Source of the DNA: an uncultured Alphaproteobacteria bacterium
GTDB lineage: Bacteria > Pseudomonadota > Alphaproteobacteria > JAJTHO01 > G963706365
Assembly (NCBI GenBank): GCA_963706365.1
Contig: OY970150.1
Span: 1,005,864-1,069,863 of the forward strand
Direction of reading: 5' to 3'
DNA: 64,000 nucleotides
Part shown: piece after piece, positions 8,780 through 57,541 of the stretch
Layout of the letters: each line of letters starts with the position of its first letter
How positions within the stretch are numbered: the stretch's first letter is position 1
Translations under genes and position numbers: made by a program
Notes under the pieces: model-generated
The model's database searches: none
What the model was told of the DNA's origin: nothing
The model's input: the letters and a program-made list of their open reading frames with translations, nothing else

Positions 8780-8894
8780 CAGGATTATAGAAAACCCATT
8801 GACCAAGCCATTATAATCCATCATAAAGATGCCGTTACTTTTACCCCTGCGGGAGAATCGTTTACGATACCGAAGGCGCAACCGCCCTGGAAAC

Positions 8895-9012
8895 GCTCAG
8901 GTCACCGGACTGTAGGGTAATGTAGCCTCTGGAAAGTGGTTTACCACGCCGAAGAAGTCAATCTTTCAGGCCGTTTAATAGCGAAAGACAGAGAGGGCAT
9001 AAACGATTAGGA
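8895..9012 (+). promoter_or_regulatory. Candidate glycine riboswitch (gcvT leader)
   Basis: Leader of the gcvT operon contains CTCTGGAAAG...CACGCCGAAGAAGTCAA...CTTTCAGGCC...GACAGAGAGG, resembling the conserved glycine aptamer elements (CUCUGGAGAG / CGCCGAAGGAGCAA / CUCAGGCAAAAGGACAG). Not folded computationally. Confidence 0.45.
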
Positions 9013-27027: not shown

Positions 27028-28663
27028 AGATGCTTTTTTCTTAAAGGAGGCGCTGCAGATTCCTAGAACATTGTTGCGCGATATTCTTATAACCAGCCTG
27101 TTTCTAAATTTGCTAGCTGTTGCCCTGCCGTTATTTACCCGCGTAGTTTACGACAAAGTTATTCCCAATTTTGCCATCGAAACCCTGTGGGTATTGTTTT
27201 CCGGCATGGCCATGGTCTTGGTATTTGACAGCCTATTTAAGGCTAGCCGTAATTATATCATTCAGCATATTTCCAGCAAAACCCTGCAAGAATTAGAACA
27301 GCCGTTTATGACGCACCTGTTAAAAATACCAGCGCAACATAATCTGGCCAAAACAAATTACCATTTAAACAGCTTGCAAGAAATTTGCCGCTATCGGTTT
27401 CAATTACTAATTCCGGCAACTGTTGATATTCCTTTTGTACTGGTCTTTTTGCTAATCATTTATCTTATCTGCCCACCCATGGCGTTGGTGCCTTTGGGGG
27501 TTGGCCTTTCATTAATTGCCCTGCAAATAGCGTTTCATCATAAATTAAACAAGGCACTGGTTCATAGCCAGGAAGCCACAGAAGAACGATTGCAAACGGT
27601 TGCTGATCTTCTGCAAGGTCGTCAAACCATTCGGCAACTAGCCCACTATACGCCTTTTATCAATGATTGGAAAACAGCCAGCAGCAGAGCCGCAATTAAC
27701 AACAGCAGAATGACTTTTCTATACCAAATGGTGATGAGCCTTTCACAAAGTTGCTTGCTGTTTAACACGGTGTTGTTAATGATGGTCGGTGTTTATCAGG
27801 TGCAGGCCTCAACATTAAGTATTGGTGGGTTGCTGGCCATCAGCTTGCTAAGTGCCCGTATTTTAACGCCACTAATGTCGATTGGTGAATTATTAGCCAA
27901 ACGTCCAAAAATTCTTATGGAATTAAAACACATCAATCAGGTGATGCAAATTCCTGACGAAGGCACTGGGGCAGCTATTGCCTTTGCACCAAAACTTACC
28001 CTAACAAATGCAACCGTTGATCCTATTTTAAAAAATTGTAACTTTAGTTTACAAGCAAAAGAAAAATTGGCAATTGTAGGCAGCAGTGGTGCAGGCAAAA
28101 CCACATTATTACAAATATTATCCAAAGAGCGCACCCTTTCTTCCGGCAGTGTTTTATGGGATGATCGCAAGGACATTGCACCCGCCCATTTACGCCAACA
28201 AATGGGTATTGTTGAACAACACCCTTATTTTTTTGGACGTAGTGTGCGCGATAATTTATGCCTTGAACATCAATATGCCGATGCGGAACTTTTTAAAACA
28301 CTCGATTTGGTTGGCTTAACCACTTTTATAAAAGCCACCGGGCATGGGCTGGATTTAATGCTGGATAACGGCGGGCATAACCTTTCTGGCGGCCAGCGGC
28401 AATGCCTGGCATTGGCACGTGCCCTATTAAGACAACCTGATATTTTGTTGATGGACGAACCCACCAGCATGATGGATCATCAAATGGAACTGCAACTGGT
28501 ACAAAATTTGCGTTTTGCTTTAAAAAATAAAACAGTTGTCCTTGTTACCCACCGCACGCCGCTGCTCTCCCTAGTAGATAAAATTCTGGTTTTGGAAAAC
28601 GGGCAAGTACAGCAATTTGGCGATAAAAACACCATCCTAAATCAGCAGGCCAAGCATGGATAA
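27017..28663 (+). CDS. Type I secretion ABC transporter (HlyB-like permease/ATPase, no C39 peptidase domain)
   Basis: 548 aa. N-terminal 6-TM domain plus NBD with Walker A GSSGAGKTT, signature LSGGQRQCLALARAL, and Walker B ILLMDEPTS. Confidence 0.85.
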   Translation: MEHKDAFFLKEALQIPRTLLRDILITSLFLNLLAVALPLFTRVVYDKVIPNFAIETLWVLFSGMAMVLVFDSLFKASRNYIIQHISSKTLQELEQPFMTHLLKIPAQHNLAKTNYHLNSLQEICRYRFQLLIPATVDIPFVLVFLLIIYLICPPMALVPLGVGLSLIALQIAFHHKLNKALVHSQEATEERLQTVADLLQGRQTIRQLAHYTPFINDWKTASSRAAINNSRMTFLYQMVMSLSQSCLLFNTVLLMMVGVYQVQASTLSIGGLLAISLLSARILTPLMSIGELLAKRPKILMELKHINQVMQIPDEGTGAAIAFAPKLTLTNATVDPILKNCNFSLQAKEKLAIVGSSGAGKTTLLQILSKERTLSSGSVLWDDRKDIAPAHLRQQMGIVEQHPYFFGRSVRDNLCLEHQYADAELFKTLDLVGLTTFIKATGHGLDLMLDNGGHNLSGGQRQCLALARALLRQPDILLMDEPTSMMDHQMELQLVQNLRFALKNKTVVLVTHRTPLLSLVDKILVLENGQVQQFGDKNTILNQQAKHG

Positions 28664-52283: not shown

Positions 52284-52320
52284 CCAACTCTGTCATTCCA
52301 AGCGCAGTCGAGGGATCTCT

Positions 52321-53271
52321 ATGATAATTCGGATTGTATTAGCATTACTAGGCCTATATTTCGGTTGGCAATTGTTCCAATGGGGTGTTTTAAACGCCAC
52401 ATGGGCAGGAACACCCAAAGAATGCTTATTAAATGGTGGTGCGTGCTGGGCGTTTATTCAGGAAAAATTCCAGTTTATACTTTTTGGCCGCTACCCTAAC
52501 GATCAGCTATGGCAGCCTGCTTTGGTACAGGTTTTATGGTTGGCCATGCTGATAGCTTCGGCTTTTTGGCTGTTGAAACAACATTATAATCGCCTGTGGC
52601 TTTGGGTGGTGGTTTTGCCTTTTAGTCTCTGGTTACTTGACCTCGATAACTTGGGCGGCCTGCCGTTAACTTTTTTACTAAGTATGCTAGGCATTGCCGG
52701 GGCTTTTCCTTTAGGCGTTCTGCTGGCGCTTGGACGCACCTCAAAACTGCCTTTAGTAAAAACCTTCTGCATTGGTTATATAGAGCTGGTGCGGGGTGTG
52801 CCGCTGATTAGCGTATTATTTATGGCGTCATTTCTGTTCCCGCTTTTCCTGCCACAGGGAATTGAAAGCACCCAATTTTGGCGCGCACAAGTTGCTATTA
52901 TATTATTCGCCGCGGCTTATGTGGCCGAAGCTATTCGTGGTGGTTTGCAATCCCTGCACACCGGCCAATTTGAGGCCGCCGAAGCCTTGGGGTTATCTTA
53001 CCGGCAACGCACACAACTGGTTATTTTGCCGCAAGCCTTGCAACGCGTTATCGCCCCTTTAGTTAATATCTTTATTGGTATTTTCAAAGACACATCTCTG
53101 GTGATGATCATCGGTCTATTTGATTTACTATTAGCCACCAAAACCGCCTTAGCCGATGCCCCCTGGCGCCCTTTTTACGTGGAGGCCTTTATATTTACCG
53201 GCTTAATCTATTTTGTTTTTTGTTACGGCATGTCTCGCTATAGTCAGGTTTTGGAAAAGCGGTATGCCTAA
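52321..53271 (+). CDS. Polar amino-acid ABC transporter permease (AapM/BztC-like)
   Basis: 316 aa with an EAA loop (EAAEALGLSYRQRTQLVILPQALQRVIAPL). No binding-protein or ATPase gene flanks the pair. Confidence 0.75.
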   Translation: MIIRIVLALLGLYFGWQLFQWGVLNATWAGTPKECLLNGGACWAFIQEKFQFILFGRYPNDQLWQPALVQVLWLAMLIASAFWLLKQHYNRLWLWVVVLPFSLWLLDLDNLGGLPLTFLLSMLGIAGAFPLGVLLALGRTSKLPLVKTFCIGYIELVRGVPLISVLFMASFLFPLFLPQGIESTQFWRAQVAIILFAAAYVAEAIRGGLQSLHTGQFEAAEALGLSYRQRTQLVILPQALQRVIAPLVNIFIGIFKDTSLVMIIGLFDLLLATKTALADAPWRPFYVEAFIFTGLIYFVFCYGMSRYSQVLEKRYA

Positions 53272-53327
53272 AATTATCGTATATAGCCAACTGCTTCAAT
53301 AATGAACCATCTCGCCAAATGATATAA

Positions 53328-53965
53328 ACCGTCACTCCAGCGCAGGCTGGAGTCTATGCATCTAAAAGTGTTATGTATACGGCGATTCAGAATATGTTTC
53401 AAACCCCACGGCATGGGTTCCAGCCTTCGCTGGAACGACAGAGCGGTATATGTTAGAACCACACTTTTCAAAATACAATACCGTCACTCCAGCGCAGGCT
53501 GGAGTCTATGCCGCTGGACGTGTTATTTATACGGTAATGCAGAATATGTTTCAAACCCCACGGCGTGGGTTCCAGCTTTCGCTGGAACGACGGAACGGTA
53601 TATTTAGAGCATACTTTTCAAAGCATAAAACCGTCACCCCAGCGCAGGCTGGAGTCTATGCCGCTGGACATGTTATTTATACGGTAATGCAGAATATGTT
53701 TCAAACTCTACGGCATGGGTTCCAGCCTTCGCTGGAACGACGGAACGGTATATTTAGAGCATACTTTTCAAAGCATAAAACCGTCACCCCAGCGCAGGCT
53801 GGAGTCTATGCCGCTGGACATGTTATTTATACGGTAATGCAGAATATGTTTCAAACTCTACGGCATGGGTTCCAGCCTTCGCTGGAACGACAGAGCGGTA
53901 TATGTTAGAACCACACTTTTCAAAATACAATACCGTCACTCCAGCGCAGGCTGGAGTCCATGCCG
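53328..53965. repeat. Tandem array of ~4.3 copies of a ~150-bp unit, each carrying two short hairpins
   Basis: Units start at ~53328, 53479, 53630, 53780 and 53932 and are ~90-95% identical. Each contains ACCGTCACTCCAGCGCAGGCTGGAGTCTATGCC (hairpin ccagc-gcag-gctgg) and GGGTTCCAGCCTTCGCTGGAACGA (hairpin ttccagc-cttc-gctggaa). Related single motifs at 52292..52323 and, inverted, at 53980..54014. Confidence 0.85.
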
Positions 53966-54059
53966 CTAAAATCAAAGCTGCTGAAAATCCTCAGGCACAG
54001 ATTCCACCCTGCGGCGGAATGACCTATTAAATGTGCGCAGCAATCTTTTACTCATAGCG

Positions 54060-54710
54060 CTATAGTTTAACAATCCTACTCAGCTTATCGGCCAATTGGT
54101 AGTTATGCGTGGCCATTAATAAGCTTAGTCCGCGTTCTACTACTATATCGCTTAAAAGCTTAAAAACGGTATCGGCTGTTTCAGGATCTAGGTTGCCGGT
54201 AGGCTCATCGGCAATCAAAACAGCTGGACTGTGAATTAGGGCGCGAGCAATGGCAACGCGTTGTTGTTCACCACCCGAAAGCATCATAGGGCGGTGCGTA
54301 GAGCGATGCGCAACCCCCAATTTTTCTAACAAATTCATCGCCAGTTCTTTGATTGCTTGCTTAGATTGCTTTGCTTTTAGCAATTGCGGCAGCATCACAT
54401 TTTCCAAGGCACTAAAATCAGGTAACAATCGATGCGCTTGATAGACAAAGCCCAAATAATCTGCACGAAATTTGGTGCGTTGTCGCTCGTTACTAGCAGC
54501 ATGGCCAAAAATTTTAACCGTGCCGTTTACAGGATTTTCCAACAGCCCTGCGATGTGCAGCAACGTAGATTTTCCAGCCCCCGATGCCCCAACCAAGGCA
54601 ACGGATTCTCCTTTGTTAATCTTTAAGGAAAAATCATGTAAAACAGTGATGTCTTTACTGCCCTGATGGTAGGTGTGCGTGATATTATCCAGTTGCAATA
54701 CTGCGGTCAT
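54060..54710 (-). CDS. ABC transporter ATP-binding protein, LolD/FtsE-like (standalone NBD)
   Basis: 216 aa. Walker A GASGAGKST, signature LSGGEQQRVAIARAL, Walker B LIADEPTGNLD. Confidence 0.7.
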   Translation of the reverse strand: MTAVLQLDNITHTYHQGSKDITVLHDFSLKINKGESVALVGASGAGKSTLLHIAGLLENPVNGTVKIFGHAASNERQRTKFRADYLGFVYQAHRLLPDFSALENVMLPQLLKAKQSKQAIKELAMNLLEKLGVAHRSTHRPMMLSGGEQQRVAIARALIHSPAVLIADEPTGNLDPETADTVFKLLSDIVVERGLSLLMATHNYQLADKLSRIVKL

Positions 54711-54716
54711 AACCGC

Positions 54717-55805
54717 TTATAGCGATTTCAGGCAGGCTAACACAGCATTATTGTGTTCTGGCAGACTTATACTTAGCCTAATATGGTTAGCAATAGCGGT
54801 GCTGCGATCTCTGGCCTTTATTCCCTTTGATTCCAAAGCATTTAAAGCCAAACGAGCATCATGCATTTGCATAAATAGAAAATTGCTGTCTGAGGGATAA
54901 ATAGTTTTAACAGCAGGCATGTTCTGTAATGCTTTTTCCATGCGCTGTCTTTCTGAAACAATATGAGCTATGCGCTGTCTATTTTCCACTAGCCCGCCAG
55001 GAGAAAGCGCTTTGGTTGCCATATTAGCAGCCGTTAACGATAAAGGATAAGGCGGTAAAACGCGGCGACATAAATTAATAATATCCGGGTGCGCAATCAT
55101 ACCGCCAATACGTTCCCCTGCCAGGGAATAGGCTTTGGATAATGTTCTAAGTAAAACAATATTTTCGTATTTTTTTATTAACGCCAATTGTTTATTGCGA
55201 CGGTCTTCTTCACTGAATTCTATGTAGGCTTCATCGATCACAATAATATGCTGGCTGGCTTGTTGGGCAATGACCTTAATGTCATCAATCTTTAATAAAT
55301 TACCAGTTGGGTTACCAGGCGAGCATAGAAAAAGTAACTTTACGGCTGGTAATTTTTCAATAATATCGGGGGTATTTAGTTGAAAATTATTTTCTGTTAA
55401 AGAGACATCAACAGTGCTGCAATTCTGGATTGCTGCCGCCACTTGATACATGCCAAAAGTAGGCGAACATTGCAGAATTTTATCTATTCCCGGCTCGCAA
55501 AAAACCCGAATAAGTAAATCAATGGCCTCATCGGCTCCACGGGTAATTAATAATTGTTCCGTATCAACATCGTAGGCTGCGCTCATCGCTGTTACCAATC
55601 CTGGGGGCTGTTGGTCTGCATAACGGCGAGACATCGCTTGCTCAAACCCATAGGGCGGCCAGGGGTTTTCGTTGGCATCCAGCCAAATAGTAATGTTCTG
55701 ATTTTTGTTTTCAGATCGCGCTGAACTGTAAGGCTTTAAAGCCAGTATGTTAGGGCGCGCTAGTTTTTCTATCATGTTTATAGTCCTGGAAATTTCCCGC
55801 CCCAA
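54717..55805 (-). CDS. hisC: Histidinol-phosphate aminotransferase-like class I/II aminotransferase
   Basis: 362 aa. N-terminal PYSSARSE...IWLDANENPW substrate-binding signature and a PLP-lysine region (LRTLSKAYSLAGERIG). Confidence 0.75.
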   Translation of the reverse strand: MGREISRTINMIEKLARPNILALKPYSSARSENKNQNITIWLDANENPWPPYGFEQAMSRRYADQQPPGLVTAMSAAYDVDTEQLLITRGADEAIDLLIRVFCEPGIDKILQCSPTFGMYQVAAAIQNCSTVDVSLTENNFQLNTPDIIEKLPAVKLLFLCSPGNPTGNLLKIDDIKVIAQQASQHIIVIDEAYIEFSEEDRRNKQLALIKKYENIVLLRTLSKAYSLAGERIGGMIAHPDIINLCRRVLPPYPLSLTAANMATKALSPGGLVENRQRIAHIVSERQRMEKALQNMPAVKTIYPSDSNFLFMQMHDARLALNALESKGIKARDRSTAIANHIRLSISLPEHNNAVLACLKSL

Positions 55806-56620
55806 ATAGAGCTTGCTGATCTGGATTCGGCTGGCTTATCCAGATTCATTGTCGCCTGCGTTACCAAAGGCAATAGTGCTTTATGCACCGCCGGCTTTGC
55901 CGTAAAAATCCGGTATTCCTGGTTTAGATGTTCTCGGGAAAAATCCAAAGCGTTGCCTCTTTCATCGGTAATAACCATCCCAGCCTGTTCTAGTGGGGCA
56001 ATGAGCGGCACAATATCATAAAAAGCCAAATCTCCTTCCCATACAGCTTCAACATTTCCTAGCATAAGATCAACATATCCTAAACAATTGAGATTGGTTA
56101 TAATCTTATGCTGTTCTTTAACGTGTTGAAATGCTTTTTGCTGGCTAGCGGTTTTAAACATCACATCAGGCACTGTAGTTGCTATTTTATAAGGGGCAGT
56201 AGCTGATATAATATTGGTTTCTGTGCCGCTATAGGTTTTATTATTTAACAAATCATGTACACAACCCAGCACTGGCAAATCCTGGTACAAAAGCCCGACC
56301 ATTATACCAAAGCCACCTGCCCCGCCCTTGGCCACCTGCTGCATTGCTGAGCTACCATCAATGGGATCAATCACCCAGCAATAGTCTGCCTGTATATTAT
56401 AAATACCGCTTTCCTCACCAATAATGCCATGCTCCGGGTAATGCTGTTTAAGATGTTTTACCATCGCTAGTTCGGCTTGCCTCTCTCCTTTGGAGACTAG
56501 TTCGCCATTCTGTTTCGTTTGCATTGCGTCTGGCTGTTTTTTCAATTGCTCCCAGTTTTTTAATAAAATGGGGCGGGCAATGCTAATTAAAGCGTCAGCG
56601 GTGCGTTGAAAATCTAGCAT
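55778..56620 (-). CDS. Inositol monophosphatase-family phosphatase (possibly histidinol-phosphatase HisN, given its position next to hisC)
   Basis: IMPase motifs EESG...WVIDPIDGS and the downstream metal-binding Asp. The likely start is the internal Met at 56620. The 3' end overlaps hisC by 28 nt. Confidence 0.6.
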   Translation of the reverse strand: MLDFQRTADALISIARPILLKNWEQLKKQPDAMQTKQNGELVSKGERQAELAMVKHLKQHYPEHGIIGEESGIYNIQADYCWVIDPIDGSSAMQQVAKGGAGGFGIMVGLLYQDLPVLGCVHDLLNNKTYSGTETNIISATAPYKIATTVPDVMFKTASQQKAFQHVKEQHKIITNLNCLGYVDLMLGNVEAVWEGDLAFYDIVPLIAPLEQAGMVITDERGNALDFSREHLNQEYRIFTAKPAVHKALLPLVTQATMNLDKPAESRSASSIWGGKFPGL

Positions 56621-56659
56621 ATCATTGAATATATGCAGAAATTCCTTAATTAAAAAGAC

Positions 56660-57541
56660 ATGATCCAAGTTTGTATTAATCCGTATCGTACTGTTATTGC
56701 CGTAAACGGCATTGGCGGTGCCAAATTCTTGCAAGGGTTAATGACCAACGACATTTATTTACTCGATCATCAACCCTGCATTTATGCCTGCTTCCTGACG
56801 GCACAGGGGAAATTTCTGCATGATTTTCATATTTTCAAACAAGGGAACAGTTATTTTTTAACGCCGGAGAAAAAACGCGCGGCTGATTTGGTCAAGCGCC
56901 TAAAAATGTATAAGCTAAGAGCCGCTGTTGATATTCAAAATATTGACTATTTGAATGTTTTTCATTTTCTACAAGGTGATCCGTCTAACCTTTTACCGCC
57001 AGATAGCTTGCTCTCTGCTGATCCACGTCATGAAGATTTAGGATACCTGGCCTTATTAAGTGAAAACGCCGTCGAAAATTTAAAAAGCCGTCAGGATGGT
57101 ATGGGCGCAGCTGTTGACAGCCATTTAAAAGAACAGCAATTAGAGGAAATAGCCTTTGATTTGTGGGACACACAACGCATTCAAGCCAAGGTGCCTGATG
57201 GCAGCCGTGATATGATGCCCGAAAAAGCTATCTTATTGGAATATGGGCTGGATAATTTGAACGCTATTTCTTATGAAAAAGGTTGTTATTTGGGGCAAGA
57301 ACTAACCGCCAGAACCCATTATCGCGGTATTGTTCGCAAAGGTTTGGAAATTGTAACAGGTGATAATTTACCGGAAACAGGCATACCGCTTTTTAATAAA
57401 GAAAATGAAAAATCTGTTGCTACAATGGCATCCTCCTGTAAGGAAATTGGATTAGTACTGATAAAACAGGAAGAAAATACAAATAAATTTCCGTTATTTA
57501 CAGAAAACCGTGAGGAAGAAATTAATCTTTTACACAAATAA
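56660..57541 (+). CDS. ygfZ: YgfZ/CAF17-family folate-binding Fe-S cluster repair protein
   Basis: 293 aa. GcvT-like fold with the diagnostic KGCYLGQE motif (SYEKGCYLGQELTARTHYRG). Confidence 0.75.
   Translation: MIQVCINPYRTVIAVNGIGGAKFLQGLMTNDIYLLDHQPCIYACFLTAQGKFLHDFHIFKQGNSYFLTPEKKRAADLVKRLKMYKLRAAVDIQNIDYLNVFHFLQGDPSNLLPPDSLLSADPRHEDLGYLALLSENAVENLKSRQDGMGAAVDSHLKEQQLEEIAFDLWDTQRIQAKVPDGSRDMMPEKAILLEYGLDNLNAISYEKGCYLGQELTARTHYRGIVRKGLEIVTGDNLPETGIPLFNKENEKSVATMASSCKEIGLVLIKQEENTNKFPLFTENREEEINLLHK

Follow-up and report, generated by a model that had tools for sequence, protein, structure and literature searches.

The window analysed here, a stretch of 64,000 nucleotides from an uncultured alphaproteobacterium with a 1.87-Mb genome of 43% GC, contains a 788-bp intergenic gap (53272–54059) between the convergent ORFs of an aapM-like amino-acid ABC permease and a LolD/MacB-type ABC ATPase (Table 1). 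The first-pass annotation had recognised the convergence correctly, and its length of 790 bp was slightly too high. Most of the gap is occupied by a tandem array, for which Tandem Repeats Finder reported a period of 150, 4.2 copies and 91% matches (score of 1004), while a repeat search of the window returned unit start-to-start spacings of 152, 150 and 150; the claim of roughly 4.3 tandem units of ~150 bp was thereby confirmed. Pairwise identity between units ranged from 85.5 to 95.3%. The layout, an A hairpin, a 47-nt linker, a B hairpin and a 35–37-nt linker, is repeated for about four rounds, with two types of inter-doublet linker (one common to u1 and u4, the other to u2 and u3), and GC content alternates between 0.61–0.69 in the hairpins and 0.29–0.40 in the spacers. 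Independent short-read contigs matched both array flanks exactly and ended inside hairpins A1 and A5, and the internal copy number given here is that of one assembly. BIME-like arrays disrupt short-read assemblies, and this was seen at the present locus too.

Both stem-loops described earlier for each unit were present and folded (8-bp stems, 4-nt loops, −14.5 and −14.3 kcal/mol). What had been overlooked is that both hairpins share one motif, which the second carries as its reverse complement (CCGTCGTTCCAGCGAAGGCTGGAACCCATG versus CCGTCACTCCAGCGCAGGCTGGAGTCTATG), so that each array unit is an inverted doublet. The common motif of ~30 nt consists of an unpaired CGTC/TGTC tag, an 8-bp stem, a GNAG loop and a CYA tail. 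Ten such hairpins, arranged as five head-to-head doublets of which four are tandemly amplified, were found in the gap. All ten share the 8-bp stem and the 4-nt loop (GCAG, GAAG or GAAA). The tag is CGTC in A1–A5, B2 and B3, TGTC in B1 and B4 and a variant GGTC in C, and the tail is CCA in the B arms and A5, CTA in A1–A4 and CTG in C. The first two stem pairs read A-T/C-G in A arms, G-C/T-A in B arms and A-T/T-A in C only, the A and B arms differing by compensatory changes (AC..GT versus GT..AC). A C.A mismatch at the third stem pair of A3 on the + strand corresponds to a G.U wobble on the − strand. The inverted copy said to terminate the array does exist, at the coordinates given for hairpin C rather than at 53980–54014, and it ends 34 nt from the stop codon of the LolD-like gene.

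Table 1. Features of the array locus. Bit scores and E values of hairpins refer to R1, the covariance model of foreign hairpins described in the text
Feature	Position	Strand	Description	Evidence
Alleged diverged copy, aapQ-aapM spacer	about 52291..52323	+	Not supported as family member	R1 8.3 bits, E 7.6
aapM-like amino-acid ABC permease	52321..53271	+	Upstream convergent gene	NCBIfam; tblastn
Tandem array	53326..53967	no strand	u1 53326–53477 (152 bp), u2 53478–53627 (150), u3 53628–53777 (150), u4 53778–53929 (152), then partial fifth unit	Tandem Repeats Finder; unit alignment
REP A1	53329..53360	+	CGTC tag, stem ACTCCAGC/GCTGGAGT, loop GCAG, tail CTA	46.1 bits, E 7.5e-10; fold −14.5 kcal/mol
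REP B1	53408..53443	-	Inverted partner of A1; TGTC tag, stem GTTCCAGC/GCTGGAAC, loop GAAG, tail CCA	46.0 bits, E 8.2e-10; fold −14.3 kcal/mol
152-aa ORF	53450..53908	+	Runs through u2–u4; by-product of stop-free repeat frame, not a gene	
REP A2	53481..53512	+		46.1 bits
REP B2	53560..53595	-	Loop GAAA	37.7 bits, E 1.3e-7
REP A3	53631..53662	+		43.3 bits; hairpin scan
REP B3	53710..53745	-		47.3 bits
REP A4	53781..53812	+		43.3 bits
REP B4	53860..53895	-		46.0 bits
REP A5	53933..53964	+	Tail CCA; left arm of last doublet	47.2 bits
REP C	53994..54025	-	Variant, right arm of last doublet; GGTC tag, stem ATTCCGCC/GGTGGAAT with one G.T pair, loop GCAG	Hairpin scans; 16.4 bits, E 0.053; fold −12.6 kcal/mol
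LolD/MacB-type ABC ATPase	54060..54710	-	Downstream convergent gene	TIGR02211 251 bits, below cutoff of 307.75

Related 30-bp motifs had been proposed to frame aapM. The downstream motif belongs to the hairpin cluster, while the upstream one, a supposed diverged copy in the spacer between the two permease genes, was indistinguishable from chance: it ranked 25th of 27 window matches to R1, reached an E value of ~5 in blastn-short and lacked a fold (−2.9 kcal/mol, z +1.56), and its 3′ half (GAGGGATCTCTATG) is a Shine-Dalgarno-like GAGG (52310–52313) five bases before the aapM ATG. A motif search of the window gave five matches, every one within the array, against none expected by chance. Neither this search nor blastn-short or R1 detected a further copy of the array hairpin in the 63 kb that the window comprises outside the gap, and the hairpin family may therefore be small in the source genome. 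The string GTCATTCCAGCG at 49254, inside an IS5-family element, was judged to be a chance 12-mer.

The aapM-like product is ~50 aa shorter at its N-terminus than its homologues, which are at most 57% identical to it. In the two closest homologue contexts examined, genes for a binding protein, two permeases and an ATPase follow one another in this order, and tblastn found neither AapJ-type nor AapP-type genes in the window; the array indeed lies where the transporter ATPase gene would be expected. This absence is what speaks for a degraded remnant of the missing gene, just as hairpin-forming repeats of ~29 nt at 35–47-nt intervals recall a CRISPR. Yet no ATPase remnant was detected in the gap (best AapP match E 0.27 against a 788-bp database), repeat orientation alternates, the would-be spacers are themselves repeated, and no nearby cas genes with unique spacers were seen, which leaves a CRISPR-like or ATPase-derived origin extremely improbable.

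The 152-aa ORF listed at first pass exists, its frame being open throughout u2–u4, and gene calling yielded related ORFs (P0121 and P0122) elsewhere in the source genome. It is nevertheless very unlikely that the array is a gene for a repetitive peptide with a 50-residue repeat. The ORF has no NCBIfam family, its homologues are confined to the source genome and have ragged ends, and u2 and u3 differ by two synonymous and four non-synonymous changes. Moreover, 2-bp indels in u1 and u4 disrupt the frame, the ORF stopping at the latter, and conservation sits in DNA palindromes, not in peptide features. The earlier preference against a peptide is upheld by the missing protein family, the lack of coding constraint and the frame-breaking indels.

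P0121 and P0122 are informative in another respect. Both are products of ORFs on the same 1,867,446-bp contig as the window, neither is encoded within the window, and in each of them the full 50-aa module is present twice in tandem, at 68–78% identity. Judging from these translations, the 150-bp module probably recurs in tandem at no fewer than two other loci of the source genome. The lack of a second copy elsewhere in the window (63 kb) would suit a neutral tandem duplication confined to this locus and made from unique intergenic DNA unrelated to any family. Such an origin is contradicted by this apparent recurrence of the full module and by the wide distribution of the core outside the source genome, and we regard it as highly improbable.

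In fact, the 22-nt core pattern GTCRYYCCAGCGMAGGCTGGAR matched at least 120 foreign stretches of genome sequence spanning many phyla, and the core motif additionally occurred in 25 metagenome stretches and on 12 viral contigs. The CGTC hairpin (~29 nt), unpaired tag and tail included, shows near-complete sequence conservation in Proteobacteria, Chloroflexota/Dehalococcoidia, Patescibacteria, Cloacimonadota, KSB1, Bacteroidota, Planctomycetota, Campylobacterota and viral contigs, and the foreign copies stand in unrelated genomic contexts. Among the matches listed (139 instances), positions left free by the search pattern carried the tag CGTC in 88 and TGTC in 47 cases, and the tail CCA in 99 and CTA in 18. 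The first stem pair was A-T in 110 of the listed instances and G-C in 17, and the C-G variant was likewise seen in 17 of the 139. Adjacent hairpin pairs among the listed matches were mostly head-to-head (86, versus 14 tail-to-tail and 31 head-to-tail), and the largest cluster among the 120 foreign loci listed comprised six hairpins, compared with ten at the present locus. The 25 metagenome stretches, mostly higher-GC contigs (0.45–0.68), contain the AC..GT variant specific to the window; they have only a core of ~25–34 nt in common with the array, and the window linkers are absent from them.

Covariation analysis had been suggested at first pass as a check on the hairpins. Among the foreign matches listed, 97% of cells were paired and 27 double-change cells were counted against 6.3 in shuffles (none of 500 shuffles reached 27), showing that the outer stem pairs covary. 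The covariance model R1, built solely from foreign instances (80 distinct), matched nine window hairpins at 38–47 bits (E at most 1.3e-7); the lower score of hairpin C is to be read in the context of a model specific for the CCAGC core.

These properties correspond to those of the CGTC-1 family of repetitive extragenic palindromes (REPs), defined by a CGTC/TGTC tag (CCTC being tolerated), an 8-bp stem, a 4-nt loop and a tail of approximately CCA. These REPs lie between ORFs that converge or run in the same direction, mostly as head-to-head dimers with outward tags (Di Nocera et al. 2013, PMC3733652). CGTC REPs predominate in alphaproteobacteria, clusters being rare outside Neisseria and Wolbachia, and Neisseria dRS3 has been assigned to CGTC-1 (PMC3733652). 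The present hairpins agree in tag, stem, loop, CCA/CTA tail, head-to-head doublets and convergent-ORF setting, and the host is itself an alphaproteobacterium. They depart from the family in that the doublets are heterodimers of unlike arms, ten hairpins make a large cluster, and the A and B arms deviate in their two outer stem pairs from the typical A-T and T-A, which are described as ‘almost invariably’ present, i.e. typical and not obligatory (PMC3733652). The same covarying variants are present in foreign instances, and R1 gave the A and B arms 38–47 bits despite their atypical outer pairs. The gap thus very probably holds a non-coding cluster of ten CGTC-tagged REPs of CGTC-1 type, organised as five head-to-head inverted, REPIN-like doublets, from a repeat family apparently dispersed in the source genome.

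The array might alternatively be read as a cluster of sRNA genes, with each 150-nt unit transcribed and processed to a structured small RNA similar to Wolbachia WsnRNA-46. Strong folding was obtained for either strand of each unit (−56.9 and −53.9 kcal/mol; z −6.3 and −5.0), and the Rfam model of WsnRNA46 (RF02625), of ~150 nt and with a consensus likewise made up of two inverted, TGTC-tagged hairpins, aligned end to end with two units. Furthermore, WsnRNA-46 has been described as a functional Wolbachia sRNA (PMC12796755), and Coxiella is known to have sRNAs derived from REPs and from MITEs (PMC5896051). However, the two full-length matches scored 21.0 and 21.4 bits against a gathering threshold of 65.3, stems and loops differ from those of the model, and symmetric folding of the two strands is expected of DNA palindromes. 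No promoter-like or terminator-like sites were found in 53150–54150, where shuffles gave 1.7 and 1.1, and the same hairpin occupies unrelated contexts across phyla. At gathering thresholds the Rfam matches of the window were limited to tRNAs and a glycine riboswitch, with nothing in the array; matches in E-value mode were all sub-threshold (plant miRNA hairpins, which are spurious, WsnRNA46 and BjrC68). We therefore consider the sRNA reading quite unlikely. Where the first-pass annotation favoured a REP/BIME-like structured RNA array or sRNA cluster, its REP/BIME part stands on the CGTC-REP anatomy and BIME-2-like layout, and its RNA part is disfavoured by the lack of promoter-like and terminator-like sites and of Rfam matches at gathering score. 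Collectively, the array is a sizeable yet unremarkable cluster of non-coding repeats from the already described REP superfamily, not a new gene or RNA.

Its layout resembles that of BIME-2 in Escherichia coli, for which a definition and a strand-transfer model are available (PMC3333891): REPs alternate with inverted REPs, two linker types alternate, tandem copies are conserved within the locus and one module is, apparently, present at several loci. BIME-2 differs in its GTAG-tagged y and z2 REPs, to which the present CGTC/TGTC-tagged, 150-bp unit is unrelated in sequence, and in having a partner RAYT, TnpA(REP); none was seen for the present array. A tblastn search with E. coli RayT found no RAYT in the window or in 157 loci (best E 0.8, spurious), four weak matches proving to be spurious ORFs on inspection. 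No other transposase was found in the window, and the 148 ORFs within 400 bp of foreign CGTC hairpins gave no transposase signal, being spread over 133 Pfam families of which none had more than three members.

Neisseria NIME arrays with dRS3 are built from the same REP family and likewise show inverted hairpins separated by AT-richer segments of 50–150 bp, and a GC wave of GC-rich repeats alternating with AT-richer spacers; NIME arrays are also dynamic and prone to recombination (PMC1797815). In contrast, none of the present cores (ACTCCAGC.., GTTCCAGC.. and ATTCCGCC..) is an exact match to the dRS3 core ATTCCC-N8-GGGAAT, and NIMEs, which were stated not to occur outside Neisseria (PMC1797815), combine over 100 families of RS elements, whereas the present array alternates two linker families only. 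REPINs, those of the dRS3 type in Neisseria being tied to Group 2 RAYT, are similarly composed of two REPs in inverted orientation that are separated by less than 130 bp and can fold as one long hairpin (Bertels and Rainey; PMC3116915, bioRxiv 10.1101/2021.07.10.451892). Unlike in REPINs, the arms of the present doublets are only ~80% complementary to one another, and each retains its own stem by compensatory changes.

Four doublets, each with its 35–37-bp inter-doublet linker, form the 150/152-bp module that is amplified 4.2-fold in tandem. The array may have grown by unequal recombination or replication slippage between near-identical modules, which fits the linker mosaic (u1 like u4, u2 like u3); HUH (RAYT-type) strand transfer, as proposed for BIME-2, would be an alternative route. 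Either strand could form stable hairpins, as 8-bp REP stems or as one long doublet stem, and if transcripts of the convergent genes enter the array, the hairpins would serve as 3′-end stabilisers or insulators. Any such action would probably be incidental to an element that is itself largely selfish or neutral.

The core of CGTC REPs is almost invariant and very widely distributed, and no transposase partner was seen beside it. A widely shared trans-acting protein or horizontally moving agent might recognise the CGTC hairpin and build BIME-2-like arrays, and in small-genome alphaproteobacteria the doublets might be expressed as sRNAs like Wolbachia WsnRNA-46, a speculative scenario that we consider unlikely. 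NIME and BIME arrays suggest by analogy that the present array, which lies where the transporter lacks its ATPase gene, may be a hot spot of recombination. The locus contributes a tandem array in BIME-2 style, made from CGTC-type REPs, in an alphaproteobacterium; such layouts have been described chiefly in Neisseria and Wolbachia.

The 788 bp separating the aapM-like ORF (52321-53271, +) from the LolD/MacB-type ATPase ORF (54060-54710, -) contained the sole strong array in the window as identified by Tandem Repeats Finder (53326-53967; period of 150, 4.2 copies, 91% matches, no indels). A repeat search placed successive unit starts 152, 150 and 150 bp apart, with pairwise identities between units of 85.5-95.3%. 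When up to three mismatches to the first hairpin motif were allowed, a search of the window gave five matches against none expected, all within the array; the other 63 kb held no further copy. Both stem-loops assigned to each unit by the first-pass annotation were present, although it had overlooked that one is an inverted copy of the other. On the + strand, arm A is CCGTCACTCCAGCGCAGGCTGGAGTCTATGC, and arm B, read as the reverse complement, is CCGTCGTTCCAGCGAAGGCTGGAACCCATGC; in both, an unpaired (C/T)GTC tag precedes an 8-bp stem with a 4-nt GNAG loop, and a C(C/T)A tail follows. Predicted folding energies were -14.5 (A) and -14.3 kcal/mol (B). The outer two stem pairs differed by compensatory changes (A-T/C-G in A versus G-C/T-A in B), so that each arm retained its own hairpin.

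Five doublets with outward-facing tags were found in the gap, four of which, together with 35-37-bp linkers, build the 150/152-bp modules. One linker version was common to u1 and u4 and another to u2 and u3, while the inner spacer was identical in u3 and u4; such a mosaic is the expected outcome of recombination between units. GC content followed a wave across the array (0.61-0.69 in hairpins, 0.29-0.40 in spacers), with a window value of ~43%. A C.A mismatch on the + strand of A3 (53631-53662) and A4 (53781-53812) corresponds to a G.U wobble on the - strand, and hairpin C has a G.T pair on the - strand. Among 139 instances from other genomes, non-Watson-Crick pairs formed wobbles on the non-tag strand in ~14 cases, versus ~5 for the tag strand.

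Array units, the variant tenth hairpin and matching short-read contigs (window positions)
Feature	Position	Strand	Remark
Unit u1	53326-53477
Unit u2	53478-53627
Unit u3	53628-53777
Unit u4	53778-53929		a partial fifth unit follows
Hairpin C	53994-54025	-	distinct inner stem ATTCCGCC/GGTGGAAT; partner of A5
Contig L001	49195-53351		ends inside REP A1
Contig L122	53935-57829		reverse-complemented; ends at REP A5

Both Logan contigs (run ERR12040027), which derive from an independent short-read assembly, matched the window exactly; together with their end points, this confirms both flanks and indicates that the array behaves as a repeat. Logan support covers the array flanks, not the internal copy number.

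In their features, the array hairpins fit the CGTC-tagged REPs of the literature; these carry a CGTC or often TGTC tag and tails fitting CCA, form mostly head-to-head and rarely tail-to-tail dimers, favour gaps between convergent or co-directional ORFs, and have Alphaproteobacteria as their predominant hosts (PMC3733652). The sole departure from the CGTC-1 family, defined by 8-bp stems and 4-nt loops, lies in the outer stem pairs, described as 'almost invariably' A-T/T-A (PMC3733652); the covarying outer-pair variants of the array were also found in other genomes. The array resembles E. coli BIME-2 in its alternating REPs and inverted REPs, two linker types and multiple well-conserved tandem copies (PMC3333891), and its GC wave recalls the Neisseria NIME (PMC1797815). 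The REP/BIME-like reading initially proposed was thus borne out by both the hairpins and the tandem layout. Because the repeats alternate in direction and their spacers are themselves repeated, a CRISPR array was excluded.

A gene for a repeat peptide, the 152-aa array ORF, had been considered less likely from the outset and is indeed unlikely: no NCBIfam family was matched, u2 and u3 differed by four non-synonymous and two synonymous changes, and 2-bp indels were present in u1 and u4, the ORF stopping at the latter. Its comparison with the protein collection returned exactly two matches, P0121 (110 aa) and P0122 (92 aa), both on the same 1,867,446-bp contig as the window proteins and each comprising two tandem copies of the full 50-residue module with both hairpins and both linkers. 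As their identity to the window was at most 78%, they are encoded outside it. Since both hold the whole module, tandem copies of the complete 150-bp module are predicted at no fewer than two further loci, rather than being absent elsewhere in the genome, the outcome that the first-pass annotation had named, in combination with no transcription, as counting against its reading.

For an sRNA cluster, the other half of that proposal, no positive evidence emerged. Neither promoter-like nor terminator-like sites were found at 53150-54150, the array had no match at Rfam gathering thresholds, and both strands folded equally strongly. In E-value mode, two units gave full-length alignments to RF02625 (Wolbachia WsnRNA46; 21 bits versus a threshold of 65.3), the consensus of which is an inverted pair of TGTC-tagged hairpins; the description of WsnRNA-46 as a functional sRNA (PMC12796755) provides a precedent for the expression of doublets of this kind. 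Additionally, B2 at 53569-53588 (-) weakly matched BjrC68, a Bradyrhizobiaceae sRNA (14.9 bits versus a gathering score of 39), hinting that some catalogued alphaproteobacterial sRNA families may contain CGTC-type REP hairpins.

The string at 52292-52323, formerly held to be a related motif framing aapM, was present as written, but its membership of the family was indistinguishable from chance: the covariance model R1, trained on instances from other genomes only, scored it at 8.3 bits (E 7.6, rank 25 of 27 window matches), blastn-short gave E ~5, and no fold was predicted for it (-2.9 kcal/mol, z +1.56). Descent from a REP by decay is possible, though not separated from chance. In its 3' half, GAGG lies five bases 5' of the aapM ATG, as is ordinary for a ribosome-binding site.

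The permease ORFs were aapQ-like and aapM-like by NCBIfam, the nearest aapM homologues being just 55-57% identical. Two of the closest contexts (P0003 and P0005) contained genes for a binding protein, two permeases and an ATPase, in that order, the ATPase gene starting within ~10 bp of aapM. Consistent with the missing transporter ATPase gene remarked on earlier, tblastn with four context proteins found no binding-protein or AapP-type ATPase gene in the whole window; the only two ATPases recovered were the convergent LolD/MacB-type one (34.6% identity) and an ABC ATPase at 28028-28642. An ATPase gene remnant in the gap was rejected (best AapP match E 0.27, against a database of just 788 bp). 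The aapQ-like/aapM-like genes (51150-53271) form an orphan permease pair, with rsmG divergent from and abutting aapQ; the AapM N terminus is ~50 aa shorter than in homologues.

The LolD/MacB-type ATPase scored 251 bits (LolD cutoff 307.75); its gene comes last in 54060-56734 (-), where it follows a HisN-like phosphatase gene and hisC, and no LolC/LolE-type permease gene is adjacent. An IS5-family transposase (~48958-49959, +) is apparently split into ORFs 48958-49191 and 49201-49959 and adjoins a PIN-domain gene (50126-50494, -); L001 begins inside this element, which suggests that it is multi-copy in the genome. A glycine riboswitch aptamer was located at 8840-8922 (+; 55.3 bits versus a gathering score of 32). 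The window comes from an alphaproteobacterium: the best named matches of UvrB (46855-48810), at ~72% identity, were from Azospirillaceae and other Rhodospirillales. Its best three non-self matches (P0124-P0126) were 818-861 aa long versus 651 aa here, and most others ~700-750 aa. REP insertions within uvrB are described in Rickettsia conorii (PMC3733652).

A degenerate 22-mer (GTCRYYCCAGCGMAGGCTGGAR), scanned against contigs with one genome per species, matched at least 120 genome stretches, where only a few would be expected by chance according to our own information-content estimate rather than tool output. Hosts among the matches listed included Sphingomonas, Undibacterium, Dyella, Rickettsiales, Dehalococcoidia and other Chloroflexota, Saccharibacteria, Roizmanbacteria, Cloacimonadota, KSB1, Bacteroidales, Ignavibacteriae, Calditrichaeota, Anaerohalosphaeraceae, Sulfurovum and one Pseudobdellovibrionaceae MAG. 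The core was also found in metagenome stretches (L127-L151) and in 12 stretches of IMG/VR contigs (L152-L163), with four copies on one 27.8-kb viral contig (L155, L157, L160). Outside the ~29-nt element, no sequence relation between genomes was seen. At positions left free by the pattern, GTC was preceded by C (88), T (47) or A (4), the tail was CCA (99) or CTA (18), and the first stem pair was A-T (110), G-C (17) or other (12). Across 80 distinct instances from other genomes, 97% of stem cells were paired (just 9-48% in slid registers), and 27 double-change cells were observed versus 6.3 in shuffles, none of 500 shuffles reaching 27. With R1, nine hairpins of the window scored 37.7-47.3 bits (E <=1.3e-7); the lower score of hairpin C (16.4 bits, E 0.053) reflects an inner stem that departs from the invariant CCAGC core of the model.

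A generic CGTC-hairpin scan of the 120 listed loci in other genomes yielded 348 hairpins, with 113 clusters of one, 81 of two, 10 of three, four of four, three of five and two of six. Neighbouring pairs were head-to-head in 86 cases, head-to-tail in 31 and tail-to-tail in 14, and only three tandem arrays with REP cores were found, all short (<=2.2 copies). The strictly alternating ten-hairpin cluster is at the top of this sample. Clusters of CGTC REPs are rare save in Neisseria (CGTC-1 = dRS3) and Wolbachia (PMC3733652), and a cluster of ten is still within the range described for these two.

Using E. coli RayT as query, which has limited sensitivity, no RAYT-like sequence was detected in the window or ~157 other loci. 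Among 148 ORFs next to CGTC hairpins in other genomes, transposases were not enriched and the genes were ordinary housekeeping ones, in agreement with what was stated in 2013, namely that no transposase gene is associated with CGTC REPs (PMC3733652); in a later preprint, Neisseria dRS3-type REPINs are linked to a Group 2 RAYT (10.1101/2021.07.10.451892). The array may have grown by unequal recombination, slippage or HUH strand transfer, and the hairpins might play a role at the 3' ends of convergent transcripts.

Collectively, the feature is real and statistically solid, and falls within a described repeat superfamily and a described kind of array. The phylum range observed here exceeds the five phyla given in 2013 (PMC3733652). 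The hairpin core, tag and tail are almost invariant over many phyla (Chloroflexota, Patescibacteria, Cloacimonadota, KSB1 and Planctomycetota among them), and this near-invariance is the one lead worth following.
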